DNA of 64,000 nt from an uncultured Eubacterium sp. (GTDB lineage Bacteria > Bacillota > Clostridia > Peptostreptococcales > Anaerovoracaceae): NCBI GenBank assembly GCA_964388765.1, contig CAYMBU010000001.1:596-64595 (forward strand). The letters are read 5' to 3'. The translations under genes and the position numbers were made by a program. This document shows, piece by piece, positions 3,552-9,718 of the stretch. The notes below the pieces were generated by a model. The model was not told where the DNA came from and did no database searches. It worked only from the letters and a program-made list of their open reading frames with translations. Each line of letters begins with the position of its first letter. Positions within the stretch are counted from its first letter, which is position 1.

Positions 3552-5321
3552 CTACTCCTCCCTTCCTGTCTTTGGCGTCTCAACAGCAGGTCCCGCTGTT
3601 GATTCCAGAGCGCCGACTTTACAGAGCTGGCTGCATACCCCGCACCCTACGCAGAGTGTATCGTCGACATGCGCCTTGCCGTCTTTTATCGATATCGAAG
3701 GGCATCCGATCTTCATGCACATTTTGCAGCCGACGCATTTGTCTGTGTTGACTCTGAGCGGAGCATCGTGCTTTACATATTTCAGCAGTGTGCACGGACG
3801 TCTTGAAATGATCACAGAAGGCTCCTTTGCCGCGAGCTCTTCTTTGATCGCTTTATCTGTCTCCTCCAGGTCATACGGATCCACGACTCTTACTCTGTTG
3901 ATGCCCATGGCTTTTACCAGAGCCTCAAGGTCGATCTTGCCTGCAGGGTCGCCTTTGATGTTGTATCCCGTCAGCGGGTTCTGCTGGTGACCTGTCATTC
4001 CTGTTATGGAATTGTCCAGAACGATGACTGTCGAATTGGACTGGTTGTACGCGATGTTCGCCAGACCCGTCATGCCGCTGTGCATGAACGTAGAATCGCC
4101 GAGGACACCTACTGTCTTTCCTTCAGAAGCTCCGCCTGTAGCTGTATTGAAACCGTGAACGGCACCGAACGACGCTCCCATGCAGAGGGTCATCTCCATG
4201 GCACAGAGAGGCGGCGCGGCGGAAAGTGTATAGCAGCCGATGTCTCCGAGTACTGTTACCTTGTTCTTTGCAAGCTCATAGAAGAGACCTCTGTGCGGAC
4301 ATCCTGAACACATTACAGGTGGACGTACAGGGATCTGGTCATCGAGTGCCTTTCCTTCGCATACTTCTTCTCCGAATGTCTTCGCGATGAGATTCTGTGA
4401 AAACTCTCCGCAGATCGGAAGGATGTCTTTGCCGCTCACTTCCAGGCCAAGCTTTCTGCAGTGGTTCTCGATGATAGGGTCGAGCTCTTCAACGACTACC
4501 AACTTGTCCACCTTTGCGGCAAAATCCTTTATGAGCTTTTCCGGAAGAGGATTTGCCATTCCGAGTTTCAGAACTGATACTCTGTTGCCGAACACTTCCT
4601 TTACATACTGGTATGAAGTGCTTGACGTTATGATGCCCATCTCTGTTCCGCCGATCTCGATCCTGTTGACCGGTGACGTTTCCGCATATTCGATCAGCTT
4701 CTTTGTACGCTCTTCAACGAACGGGTGGCGCTTGATCGCGTTTCCTGGAGTCATTACATACTTGGAGATAGTCTTTTCATATTCCTTCTTAGGAACGGTG
4801 CGCTCACCCGGATCCACTACGGACTGGCTGTGCGCCACGCGCGTGCACATTTTCAGAAGCACAGGCGTGTCATATTCTTCCGAGATCTCATACGCGAGCT
4901 TTGCGAACTCATATGCCTCCTGTGAGTCTGAAGGCTCCAGCATAGGTATCTTGGACGCTATCGCATGATGGCGGCTGTCTTGCTCATTCTGTGAAGAATG
5001 CATGCCTGCGTCGTCCGCGACTCCAATGACCATGCCCGCGTTGACTCCCGTGTATGACATGGTATACAGAGGGTCTGCGGCAACATTCAGTCCTACGTGC
5101 TTCATACCGCAGAATGAACGTGATCCCGCAAGGCACGCGCCGAAGGCTGATTCCATAGCCACTTTCTCATTCGGCGCCCACTCGCTGTAGACATCGTCGA
5201 ATTTCGCGATCTCTTCTGTTATCTCCGTGCTTGGAGTTCCCGGGTAGCTGGATGCAAAGCAGCAGCCTGCGTCATACAGTCCGCGAGCGACCGCCTTGTT
5301 CCCTAACATCAGTTGTTTCAT
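3552..5321 (-). CDS. iorA: Indolepyruvate (arylpyruvate):ferredoxin oxidoreductase alpha subunit
   Basis: YPGTPSTEI, EWAPNEKVA, MKHVGLNVAAD, CSGCPHR, GDIGCY, GDSTFMHSG TPP motif, C-terminal 2x[4Fe-4S]. Confidence 0.95.
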   Translation of the reverse strand: MKQLMLGNKAVARGLYDAGCCFASSYPGTPSTEITEEIAKFDDVYSEWAPNEKVAMESAFGACLAGSRSFCGMKHVGLNVAADPLYTMSYTGVNAGMVIGVADDAGMHSSQNEQDSRHHAIASKIPMLEPSDSQEAYEFAKLAYEISEEYDTPVLLKMCTRVAHSQSVVDPGERTVPKKEYEKTISKYVMTPGNAIKRHPFVEERTKKLIEYAETSPVNRIEIGGTEMGIITSSTSYQYVKEVFGNRVSVLKLGMANPLPEKLIKDFAAKVDKLVVVEELDPIIENHCRKLGLEVSGKDILPICGEFSQNLIAKTFGEEVCEGKALDDQIPVRPPVMCSGCPHRGLFYELAKNKVTVLGDIGCYTLSAAPPLCAMEMTLCMGASFGAVHGFNTATGGASEGKTVGVLGDSTFMHSGMTGLANIAYNQSNSTVIVLDNSITGMTGHQQNPLTGYNIKGDPAGKIDLEALVKAMGINRVRVVDPYDLEETDKAIKEELAAKEPSVIISRRPCTLLKYVKHDAPLRVNTDKCVGCKMCMKIGCPSISIKDGKAHVDDTLCVGCGVCSQLCKVGALESTAGPAVETPKTGREE

Positions 5322-5369
5322 AAGCCTGTCACCTCTTGATTCATTGCTTTTTCGTCATTTGCTGTTCTG

Positions 5370-5403
5370 AATAAAACAAAGCCGCACAGATATTTGTGCG
5401 GCT
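5370..5403 (-). terminator. Attenuator terminator in the iorA leader
   Basis: Minus-strand RNA AGCCGCACA-AAUAUC-UGUGCGGCU followed by UUGUUUUAUU, between the promoter and iorA. Confidence 0.85.
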
Positions 5404-5446
5404 CAGATCTCATATTGGTTTATCACTTGTTGTCCGTGTCCCTGCA

Positions 5447-5458
5447 GCACAAATATCT
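5447..5458 (-). promoter_or_regulatory. Antiterminator strand of the iorA attenuator
   Basis: 5447-5458 (gcacaaatatct) is the exact 12-nt reverse complement of 5388-5399 (agatatttgtgc), which covers the terminator 5' arm and loop. Confidence 0.8.
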
Positions 5459-5464
5459 CTTACC

Positions 5465-5527
5465 TTAGTCCTTAAAGTAAAAGTAGTAGTAATATTCAGC
5501 TGCAAAGATAACGGAATATTTTCTCAT
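5465..5527 (-). CDS. Tyr/Phe-rich attenuator leader peptide MRKYSVIFAAEYYYYFYFKD
   Basis: 20-codon ORF with AAAGGA RBS, seven consecutive aromatic codons (YYYYFYF); stop codon lies 6 nt before the antiterminator strand. Confidence 0.85.
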   Translation of the reverse strand: MRKYSVIFAAEYYYYFYFKD

Positions 5528-5554
5528 GATCGTTTCCTTTCATTAGTTGTGTAA

Positions 5555-5584
5555 ATAATATCACTATTTTCCTTGGCGTGTCAA
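5555..5584 (-). promoter_or_regulatory. SigmaA-type promoter of the leader/ior operon
   Basis: TTGACA-N18-TATTAT with an extended TGn -10. Confidence 0.7.
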
Positions 5585-5592
5585 GAAAAGAA

Positions 5593-5621
5593 TTGATTTG
5601 AAAATGTTTTTACAGTATTAT
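5593..5621 (+). promoter_or_regulatory. Divergent sigmaA-type promoter for the acyl-CoA synthetase
   Basis: TTGATT-N17-TATTAT upstream of the AAAGGAG RBS. Confidence 0.55.
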
Positions 5622-5666
5622 TTAGTAGAACATTTTAACGATCAAAGTAAAGGAGTTTTATAGATC

Positions 5667-7301
5667 ATGCCTATTACAGATCTGCTGGAAAGAAACAGCA
5701 AATTATATGGAAACGAAGTCGCTCTGGTGGAGATAGATCCTCAGATAACAGAGCGTCAGAGAGTGACATGGAAGGAATACGAGCTTGTACAGCCAACGCA
5801 TAACGAGTTCTACCGCCGTGAGATCACATGGTCGGTCTTTGATGAAAAAGCGAACCGCGTGGCCAACCTCCTCATATCCCGCGGCATCAAAAAAGGCCAG
5901 AAGTGCGCCGTGCTGCTGATGAACTGCCTGGAGTGGCTGCCTATTTATTTCGGTATCCTGAAGACAGGCGCCATCGCAGTCCCTCTGAACTTCCGCTACA
6001 CATCGGACGAGATCGAGTACTGCATCAAGAAAGCCGACGCGGATGTGCTGTTCTACGGACCTGAGTTTATCGGCCGTGTTGAGGACATCATCGACCACCT
6101 CGACAAAGACCATCTTCTGTTCTTCGTCGGAGATTCATGTCCGAACTATGCGGACGACTACTACAAACAGGTCTCCAATTGTTCCAGCGTCGCTCCTAAA
6201 GTACTTATTGAAGATAAAGACAAGGCGGCTATATATTATTCATCAGGCACTACCGGTCTTCCGAAAGCGATCCTGCACAATCATCTGGCGCTGATGCAGT
6301 CTGCCCAGATGGAAGCCATACATCACGAGACGACGAAGAACGACGTGTTCCTCTGCATCCCGCCGCTCTACCATACGGGCGCCAAGATGCACTGGTTTGG
6401 CTCGCTCTACACGGGAAGCCGTGCAGTCCTTCTGAAGGGCAACACACCAAAGGCGATCATGGATGCTGTATCCAATGAGGGATGCACTATCGTCTGGCTG
6501 CTCGTTCCGTGGGCGCAGGATCTTCTGATCGCGCTGGATAACGGCGAGATCAAGCTGGAAGATTACCGCACTTCACAGTGGCGTCTGATGCATATCGGCG
6601 CGCAGCCTGTTCCGCCAAGCCTCATCAAGCACTGGCTTGAATACTTCCCGAACCATCAGTACGATACCAACTACGGCCTGTCTGAGTCCACAGGTCCGGG
6701 ATGCGTCCATCTCGGCATGGAGAATATCAATAAGGTCGGAGCCATCGGTATTCCGGGCTACGGCTGGAAGACCAAGATCGTTGATGAGAACGGCAAGAAA
6801 GTCGAGCAGGGCCAGGTCGGAGAGCTTTGTGTAAAGGGACCGGGCGTCATGCTTGAATATTACAAAGACCCTGAAGCTACGGCCGAAGTCCTGAAGAAGG
6901 GATGGCTGTACACCGGCGATATGGCACAGCAGGATGAAGACGGATTCATCTTCCTGGTAGACCGTAAGAAGGACGTTATCATCAGCGGAGGCGAGAACCT
7001 GTATCCTGTACAGATCGAAGCTTTCCTCAGCGCCATGCCTAAGGTACATGACGTCGCGGTTATCGGTCTTCCGGACAAGAGGCTCGGTGAGATCGCCACA
7101 GCTATCATCCAGGTCAAGGACGGCATGGAGTGCACCGAAGACGAGATCAACCAGTTCTGTCTGGACCTGCCGCGCTACAAGAGGCCTCGCAAGATCATCT
7201 TCGCCGACGTTCCAAGAAATGCCACCGGCAAGATCGAGAAGCCGAAGCTGCGCGAGCGCTACGGAAGCCAGCGTCTCGTAGAGATGGAGAACAAGGGCTG
7301 A
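5667..7301 (+). CDS. Acyl-CoA synthetase / AMP-binding enzyme (class I adenylate-forming)
   Basis: YYSSGTTGLPK, NYGLSE, WLYTGD, DRKKDVIISGGENLYP, PRNATGKI. Confidence 0.92.
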   Translation: MPITDLLERNSKLYGNEVALVEIDPQITERQRVTWKEYELVQPTHNEFYRREITWSVFDEKANRVANLLISRGIKKGQKCAVLLMNCLEWLPIYFGILKTGAIAVPLNFRYTSDEIEYCIKKADADVLFYGPEFIGRVEDIIDHLDKDHLLFFVGDSCPNYADDYYKQVSNCSSVAPKVLIEDKDKAAIYYSSGTTGLPKAILHNHLALMQSAQMEAIHHETTKNDVFLCIPPLYHTGAKMHWFGSLYTGSRAVLLKGNTPKAIMDAVSNEGCTIVWLLVPWAQDLLIALDNGEIKLEDYRTSQWRLMHIGAQPVPPSLIKHWLEYFPNHQYDTNYGLSESTGPGCVHLGMENINKVGAIGIPGYGWKTKIVDENGKKVEQGQVGELCVKGPGVMLEYYKDPEATAEVLKKGWLYTGDMAQQDEDGFIFLVDRKKDVIISGGENLYPVQIEAFLSAMPKVHDVAVIGLPDKRLGEIATAIIQVKDGMECTEDEINQFCLDLPRYKRPRKIIFADVPRNATGKIEKPKLRERYGSQRLVEMENKG

Positions 7302-9184: not shown

Positions 9185-9718
9185 ATGGGTAAAAGGTCTA
9201 CGAAAGAAGATAAAAACGTCTATTTCCAGGCGCGTGAAGATGCAGGCCTCACGAGAGCAGAAGCCAGCGAGGCGACCAGCATTTCGGAAAGCCGCATAGA
9301 AAAGATCGAGCTGCAGAACTCGGTTCCGCATCCTGACGAGGTGAACGCCATGGCTTCAGCTTACGGCGCTCCTTCAATCTGTAATTATTACTGCTCCCAC
9401 GACTGTGAGATCGGCCAGCATTATGTCCCGGAGATACAGACACGTCACCTGACGCAGGCCGTACTTGAAATGCTTGCCTCGCTTAACGATCTCGACGAAC
9501 AGAAAAACCGCCTTATCGCCATAACCGCTGACGGCGTTATCGACGACAACGAGATACAGGATCTCGCAAGGATCCAGAATGAACTCGACCGCATTTCCAT
9601 GGCGATCGACAGCTTCAATCTCTGGGTCGATGATAAGGTCGCATCCGGAGTTATCGACAAGGACAGGCTTACTGCCGCGCGTACCGGTGCTTCAGACAAG
9701 ACTCCGTCTGACCGGTAG
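9185..9718 (+). CDS. XRE-family HTH transcriptional regulator with a Cys/His motif
   Basis: AREDAGLTRAEASE..ISESRIEKIE HTH, then CNYYCSHDCEIG. Start moved to MGKRSTKE after GGAGG. Confidence 0.82.
   Translation: MGKRSTKEDKNVYFQAREDAGLTRAEASEATSISESRIEKIELQNSVPHPDEVNAMASAYGAPSICNYYCSHDCEIGQHYVPEIQTRHLTQAVLEMLASLNDLDEQKNRLIAITADGVIDDNEIQDLARIQNELDRISMAIDSFNLWVDDKVASGVIDKDRLTAARTGASDKTPSDR

Follow-up and report, generated by a model that had tools for sequence, protein, structure and literature searches.

A contig of an uncultured Eubacterium sp. (CAYMBU010000001.1) carries, at one end of the 64,000-nucleotide stretch analysed here (the window), an operon for an indolepyruvate:ferredoxin oxidoreductase (IOR, encoded by iorA and iorB), a PaaK-type ligase, an ACT-domain protein and a symporter, and it raises two questions: how is this operon controlled, and in which direction does its pathway run? 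IOR operons are routinely labelled catabolic, and the control of aromatic amino-acid genes in Clostridia is usually attributed to T-boxes. A preliminary description of the window, made by a model from its letters, had proposed ribosome-stalling attenuation sensing Tyr and Phe codons in a short leader before iorA. The anatomy, the comparative data and the ribosome-masked folds reported below all agree with that proposal, and we conclude that iorA-iorB-paaK-ACT-symporter is very probably controlled by a functional leader-peptide (ribosome-mediated) attenuator. All the elements of the attenuator and the iorA operon lie on the minus strand, and coordinates are those of the window unless a locus is named; the genome is an 87.6%-complete assembly of 201 contigs and 1.75 Mb.

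Anatomy of the leader and its predicted switch

In transcript order, the leader comprises the following elements:

5584-5555, minus strand: sigma-70-type promoter; TTGACA at 5584-5579, 18-nt spacer, extended -10 TG-n-TATTAT at 5563-5555; 11/12 matches
5539-5535, minus strand: ribosome-binding site (RBS) AAGGA, 7 nt 5' of the ATG of the upstream open reading frame (uORF)
5527-5465, minus strand: leader peptide uORF, ATG at 5527-5525, TAA at 5467-5465, 20 codons plus stop; MRKYSVIFAAEYYYYFYFKD
5515-5492, minus strand: segment 1, 5' arm of the outer 1:2 helix (uORF codons 5-12), in a long hairpin spanning 5515-5433
5494-5474, minus strand: regulatory codon run Y12-Y13-Y14-Y15-F16-Y17-F18, seven consecutive aromatic codons, the presumed stalling sites
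5483-5457, minus strand: inner hairpin extending 1:2, with codons 15-19 in its 5' arm and the stop codon in its 3' arm; -8.1 kcal/mol
5458-5433, minus strand: segment 2, 3' arm of 1:2; its first 12 nt (5458-5447) are the antiterminator strand AGATATTTGTGC
5404-5388, minus strand: segment 3, 5' arm and loop of the terminator; bases 5399-5388 (GCACAAATATCT) pair with segment 2
5388-5370, minus strand: segment 4, 3' arm (5388-5379) and T-tail (5380-5370) of the intrinsic terminator

The promoter, the RBS and a 20-residue uORF in which 9/20 codons are Tyr or Phe (six Tyr, three Phe, no Trp) are all present as the preliminary description had them, with the extended TG-n -10 element as an addition; the transcript start is predicted at about 5548. 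At 20 codons the uORF is, as had been suspected, below gene-calling cut-offs and escapes annotation, which would benefit from recognition of such leaders. It is the sole start-codon-led, RBS-preceded aromatic uORF of its kind in the 1.75-Mb assembly: beyond it, a genome-wide scan for aromatic windows returned just non-initiated or low-complexity frames.

The antiterminator strand begins 6 nt past the stop codon of the uORF and, as first described, is complementary to the terminator; it is the exact reverse complement of bases 5399-5388, which run from the 5' arm through the loop to the first base of the 3' arm. For a perfect 12-nt complement within ~60 positions the chance expectation is ~4e-6. 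An intrinsic terminator with a U-tail does stand before iorA, but its stem occupies 5404-5379 rather than the 5380-5403 originally given, with 10 pairs (6 of them G-C), a 6-nt loop and an energy of -16.9 to -19.2 kcal/mol. What had been overlooked is the 1:2 anti-antiterminator, a hairpin of -31.4 kcal/mol (5515-5433) in which 5515-5492 pairs with 5456-5433; the 12-bp antiterminator duplex 2:3 has -20.5 kcal/mol. Adding the 1:2 element completes a 1:2/2:3/3:4 layout that matches the trp- and phe-type attenuators. The minimum-energy fold of the leader is 1:2 plus 3:4, at -56 kcal/mol compared to -33.2 ± 4.0 for shuffled sequences (z = -5.8); this fold, the low expectation of the complement, the uniqueness of the uORF in the genome and its conservation in relatives (see below) together indicate that the anatomy is not due to chance.

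When the full-length leader was folded at equilibrium with ribosome masks, the terminator was kept at most ribosome positions, and these folds, which did not discriminate between the positions, were dropped as a test of the switch; it follows that the switch must be kinetic, as it is in known attenuators. The test was made on a transcript truncated before the 3' arm of the terminator (3' end at 5388), with a 30-nt ribosome footprint masked. With no ribosome, 0/12 antiterminator pairs form and segment 2 is locked in the 1:2 hairpin; with the A-site at any of codons 4-19, 11-12 of the 12 pairs form and segment 2 is with segment 3; with the A-site at the stop codon the count returns to 0/12, segment 2 being partly covered, or is 6/12 under a steric model that allows no pairing across the ribosome. 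The truncated transcript switches, in other words, as the attenuator model needs.

From this we infer the following course of events. Transcription would begin near 5548. In a leader that is not translated, segment 2 (5458-5433) would be held with the uORF in the long 1:2 hairpin; in one that is translated through to the stop, the terminating ribosome would half cover segment 2. With segment 2 locked or covered, the 3:4 terminator (5404-5379 plus U-tail) would form and transcription would stop before iorA. When charged tRNA-Tyr or tRNA-Phe is scarce, a ribosome would stall in YYYYFYF and melt 1:2, and the freed segment 2 could then pair over 12 bp with the 5' arm and loop of the terminator; no terminator would form and the operon would be transcribed. 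The earlier suggestion that termination follows when a ribosome at the stop covers the antiterminator fits the masked folds, but this is not the only route, since the untranslated 1:2 hairpin also sequesters segment 2.

A leader family in Anaerovoracaceae

An Rfam cmscan of the leader at E ≤ 10 returned chance-level matches and no Phe, Trp, His or Leu leader, the best relevant match being Thr_leader (14.1 bits vs a gathering score of 55, E = 5.9), and the T-box model (RF00230) found no match in the window between 5250 and 5750. A search of genome contigs for the exact terminator sequence gave two records (G025 and G012). Four other species of the same genus carry an orthologous leader before the same operon, with promoter, RBS, reading frame and aromatic run kept; their records include an Anaerovoracaceae bacterium and a Eubacterium sp. 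from sheep ileum. In the four orthologous leaders the -35 and the TGn -10 are retained, a GAAAGGnAA motif is kept 5' of the uORF start in the relatives, and the peptides (MRNYSVKTAEAYYYWFYFMS, MRNYSVKFAGAFDFWFYFTGRK, MNIYSVKTADAYYFGFYFINQE and MIRNSVDYAYAYYFDFYFKN) preserve the aromatic run through exchange of Y, F and W.

A first covariance model, built from the five ior leaders alone, had matches in nine other genera of the family, and in each case the gene behind the homologous leader codes for a DAHP synthase that has a regulatory domain at its N-terminus; in seven further species of the genus of the window the leader likewise precedes DAHP synthase, and not iorA. A wider model detected the leader in 39 of the 151 Anaerovoracaceae genomes sampled (36 of 121 genera), and outside the family there was one weak match in 132 genomes from 11 other families of the order. 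Nearly all the targets are DAHP synthase genes, the others being one pheA and one class-I Tyr/Trp-type tRNA synthetase gene. The aromatic run occupies the same position of the uORF in all members of the family, and more than 40 related leaders share the frame, RBS and start codon. The choice of amino acids in the uORF tracks the controlled gene, which is strong evidence that the codons, and not the peptide, are under selection. The uORF and its aromatic codons, whose conservation the preliminary description had singled out as decisive, are thus conserved with Y/F/W interchange, and the leader represents a widespread, uncatalogued attenuator family within one family of Clostridia.

Three members of this set have individual features. 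In L149 a leader (1501-1684) with a Phe-rich uORF (MHRTHTAATFFFDSFTFNN..., with FFF) precedes a prephenate dehydratase ORF (1728-2315). In L150 a leader (1501-1677) with the uORF MNRTLLVNNNNYYYYSS, ending NNNNYYYYSS, precedes the ORF of the class-I Tyr/Trp-type tRNA synthetase (1750-2385), probably tyrS; T-box control is normal for genes of this type in Firmicutes. In L155 a leader (1527-1622) with the uORF MTKAFTYYAAYYYYYFFKNN... is followed, up to about 2300, by a stretch that by eye resembles the N-terminus of an enzyme of the tryptophanase/tyrosine phenol-lyase type; it has an in-frame TAG and a divergent end, and may be a broken gene.

The covariation alignment consists of 21 sequences and 36 pairs and, having been fitted to the model, is biased towards the structure; in it 91% of the cells are paired and 32 of the 36 pairs show changes on both sides, versus 5-14 when the partners are slid by 1-3 columns. 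Helices 1-4 covary, with both-side changes in 9/11 pairs of helix 4 (the inner hairpin), and in the terminator all 10 of 10 pairs covary across the family. Differing terminator loops prevent column alignment of the antiterminator, which was tested by the duplex energies of segment 2 with its own segment 3 and with those of other leaders: cognate 2:3 duplexes have a mean of -13.9 kcal/mol, non-cognate ones of -9.5 (14 non-redundant leaders, permutation p = 2e-5), and the comparison was likewise made on all 20 leaders. Within the ior group a compensatory change links segment 2 to a base of the terminator loop, AGATAT/ATATCT in the window copy vs AGGTAT/ATACCT in the other four; the terminator stem itself cannot account for it. 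Terminator and antiterminator pairs that covary across lineages had been named beforehand as a check on the proposal, and they are found.

Contigs from four bovine gut metatranscriptome runs (three studies) cover 5373-5534, none reaching 5' of 5534, and two of them bridge the terminator into iorA (5174-5524 and 5298-5515). Contigs of this kind tell nothing of transcript ends, strand or level, and may stem from carried-over DNA; neither termination nor the transcript start is taken to be backed by them, and all they indicate, weakly, is that RNA libraries from the expected habitat contain the leader sequence. In all four runs they have C for the T of the window at 5428, and in three runs A for G at 5361; since neither position falls in a paired segment of the attenuator, the differences are strain variation that leaves the structure intact.

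The operon, its T-box counterpart and the direction of the pathway

The genes downstream of the leader, and the divergent gene on its other side, are:

5321-3552, minus strand: iorA, indolepyruvate (arylpyruvate):ferredoxin oxidoreductase alpha subunit; TIGR03336, 703 bits vs cut-off 650.9, and Pfam domains
3549-2974, minus strand: iorB, beta subunit; NF005325, 278.7 bits vs cut-off 230
2882-1581, minus strand: PaaK-type arylacetate-CoA ligase, AMP-forming; TIGR02155, 511.5 bits, below the equivalog cut-off of 646.3
1561-1130, minus strand: ACT-domain pair protein, 143 aa; PF19571, PDB 2f06
1111-2, minus strand: sodium:solute symporter (SSF) family transporter, by family match; cut by the window edge
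5667-7301, plus strand: AMP-binding ligase gene, 544 aa, divergent

The solved structures closest to the PaaK-type ligase are PaaK enzymes (E = 3e-125), while the best family match of the symporter is of the proline/pantothenate SSF type, below cut-off. Between 5380 and 1 the promoter scan found no minus-strand promoter, and the sole terminator-like match is weak and intragenic (991-979). Inside the divergent ligase gene, RNA-library contigs of three runs skip 86-97 bases at 6397-6495, with flanks of 18-26 letters; these joints probably derive from related organisms and not from a real deletion.

A look for Tyr/Phe-rich uORFs upstream of iorA homologues had been proposed as a check. They are there in the four orthologues of the same genus, but none was found at the 80 closest iorA loci of other genera, nor before 17 other iorA copies within the genus; the leader is therefore not a general feature of iorA. 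In the IorA tree the proteins of the five operons with the leader come together in a single clade (SH-aLRT 99); the well-supported group in which it is nested comprises sequences from Lachnospiraceae, Oscillospiraceae, Selenomonadaceae, Treponema and Melainabacteria, and the other IorA copies of the same genus fall in distant clades. The divergent AMP-ligase gene and iorAB-paaK-ACT are moreover syntenic, at ~80% protein identity, in Butyrivibrio and in Oscillospiraceae-labelled metagenome-assembled genomes. The distant placement and the synteny across families together indicate that the cassette has been horizontally shared.

A simple T-box motif scan of the same 80 loci gave three positives, all in Oscillospiraceae-labelled metagenome-assembled genomes: L009 (5272-5527), L013 (5272-5530) and L046, about 720 nt 5' of iorA; the RF00230 model matches in L009 and L013 (102.5 and 93.4 bits). 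In these cassettes the T-box is followed by a 103-aa TrpR-family gene and then by iorA; L009 has the closest iorA homologue outside the genus (81% identity). The three specifier loops share the sequence GAAAUUUCAU ahead of the closing helix; in our own reading, which by the usual rule takes the purine at the 3' end of the loop to come directly after the codon, the specifier would be UUC, for Phe. The remark of the preliminary description that Firmicutes usually employ T-boxes is borne out here in a direct way, since in the ior cassettes nearest by homology this intergenic position is occupied by a Phe T-box. The L009 locus also has a fluoride riboswitch and a gene of the Na+/H+ exchanger family inserted on the opposite strand between iorB and paaK (9578-9651).

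No second copy of the leader was detected in the five genomes with an ior leader, and the genome of the window has none before its own DAHP synthase or pheA. This DAHP synthase belongs to a DAHP synthase-prephenate dehydrogenase-chorismate synthase operon without an aromatic leader, on contig C23 of the same genome (G000, 5128-5787, outside the window), and many genomes of the same genus and family carry such a leader at the DAHP synthase operon. By sequence comparison the ior leader is most simply viewed as a derived acquisition from a host leader of the aro (DAHP synthase) type. A possible history, which we offer tentatively, is that the horizontally shared iorAB-paaK-ACT cassette, on entering one Anaerovoracaceae lineage, captured the attenuator of the host aro operon at the place where relatives have a Phe T-box, and that the DAHP synthase leader was lost. 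If true, the lineage would document the replacement of one RNA sensor by an unrelated one for the same physiological signal, and the primary starvation response would have moved from de novo synthesis to the salvage of aryl acids.

As to the direction of the pathway, we consider it probable that the operon runs anabolically, from the salvage of aryl-acetate to Phe and Tyr. An operon that is switched on by a shortage of Tyr and Phe is most likely anabolic, and the presence on the same cassette of two unrelated sensors of aromatic-tRNA starvation favours the same role. The imported aryl-acetate would be activated to the CoA ester by PaaK, IorAB would reductively carboxylate the aryl-acetyl-CoA to the arylpyruvate, and an aminotransferase encoded elsewhere would convert the latter to Phe or Tyr. 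An IOR-dependent route from aryl acids to aromatic amino acids is described for Methanococcus maripaludis (Porat et al., as cited in PMC4162585), and the synthesis of Phe from phenylacetate is known in rumen bacteria and cultures (PMC7356843).

Several observations weigh against this account of the leader and its operon. Full-length equilibrium folds with ribosome masks retain the terminator at most ribosome positions; the four orthologues have a C-A mismatch within the 12-bp antiterminator; the ior-linked copy occurs in just five closely related uncultured species with little variation among them, and within this group 2:3 is backed by a single compensatory change. In the aroR leader of Corynebacterium glutamicum (Phe-Tyr-Phe), as related in PMC11802643, Phe limitation alone was effective. 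The anabolic direction rests on regulatory logic, the operon has no aminotransferase gene, and the genome has a de novo pathway (DAHP synthase, prephenate dehydrogenase, chorismate synthase and CM-PDT), from which it follows that salvage would be not an obligatory but a supplementary route.

The last two points also belong to the alternative that best survives: that the attenuator is real, but the operon handles some other substrate, or breaks arylpyruvates down oxidatively (in fermentation), the leader then adjusting expression for some purpose other than synthesis. Organisms that ferment amino acids are the best-known source of IOR enzymes, which are reversible, and the proline/pantothenate-type match of the symporter points the same way. 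We nevertheless regard this alternative as unlikely: induction by a shortage of Tyr and Phe is the opposite of what a catabolic operon needs; in other lineages the same cassette is under a Phe T-box, another starvation sensor; an AMP-forming ligase spends ATP in making the CoA ester, whereas a fermentation would conserve it; and the homologous leaders otherwise govern the biosynthetic DAHP synthase and pheA.

It is very improbable that something other than a ribosome (a protein, a tRNA or a metabolite) operates the switch, the uORF being incidental or coding for a functional micropeptide. T-boxes and protein-mediated antitermination are common in Clostridia, but this leader matches no Rfam family, and the more than 40 related leaders keep frame, RBS and start while the peptide varies and its aromatic run is maintained by Y/F/W exchange; the codons suit the pathway (FFF before pheA, YYYY before the Tyr/Trp-type synthetase), and the uORF stop is at a fixed distance from segment 2. 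Least probable of all is a decaying relic of a rearrangement, without regulation and with the hairpin as a constitutive partial terminator: a translocation is conceivable, given an ior-linked copy limited to five species whose DAHP synthase has no detectable leader, but all five copies retain promoter, RBS, intact uORF, aromatic run, 1:2, 2:3 and terminator at 72-74% DNA identity, the window copy carries the compensatory 2:3 change, and, weakly, RNA-library contigs bridge the terminator.

Relation to known systems

The attenuator preferred here resembles in its layout the E. coli leaders of pheL-pheA, pheM-pheST (Rfam Phe_leader, RF01859), trpL and hisL, which likewise translate a short leader containing consecutive cognate codons, form 1:2, 2:3 and 3:4 pairings that exclude one another, and have a terminator before the first structural gene that is read through when the charged tRNA is short. 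It differs from them in that no Rfam leader model matches it in sequence or structure, in its Clostridia host, in its mixed Tyr/Phe codons (with Trp in some relatives), and in its target, an operon for an oxidoreductase, a CoA-ligase and a transporter and not for a canonical biosynthetic enzyme.

By analogy, the nearest functional counterpart is the aroR leader of C. glutamicum, which attenuates the DAHP synthase gene aroF (Neshat et al. 2014, via the account in PMC11802643). There too an aromatic leader peptide stands on a gene of aromatic supply, and the parent family of the present element is also found before DAHP synthase; the phylum, however, is unrelated, there is no detectable homology, and the present copy has moved to iorAB-paaK. 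The Phe T-box (RF00230) cassettes of L009, L013 and L046 are closest in location, the T-box lying between the divergent AMP-ligase gene and iorA as the present leader does, and responding to the same class of signal (uncharged or scarce aromatic tRNA) with the same output (antitermination); but a T-box binds the tRNA directly where the present leader would use ribosome stalling, and the T-box loci add the TrpR-like gene before iorA. A search of the literature, itself incomplete, found no paper that ties a leader peptide or a T-box to indolepyruvate oxidoreductase, and the link may be published.

The routes reported for M. maripaludis and for rumen bacteria imply the same enzymes, a CoA ligase and an indolepyruvate oxidoreductase, and the genome of the window is itself from the rumen/gut. 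Those reports, in the form in which they are cited above, are physiological or genetic and name no control at the RNA level, whereas the present evidence is regulatory and comparative. The mechanism of this attenuator is classical; its family is uncatalogued, and its target is unusual and informative. Its attachment to iorAB-paaK, with which the Phe T-box agrees, provides regulatory evidence for a biosynthetic direction of a cassette that is common in gut and rumen, and the use of phenylacetate by rumen bacteria, an old physiological observation, becomes genetically testable.

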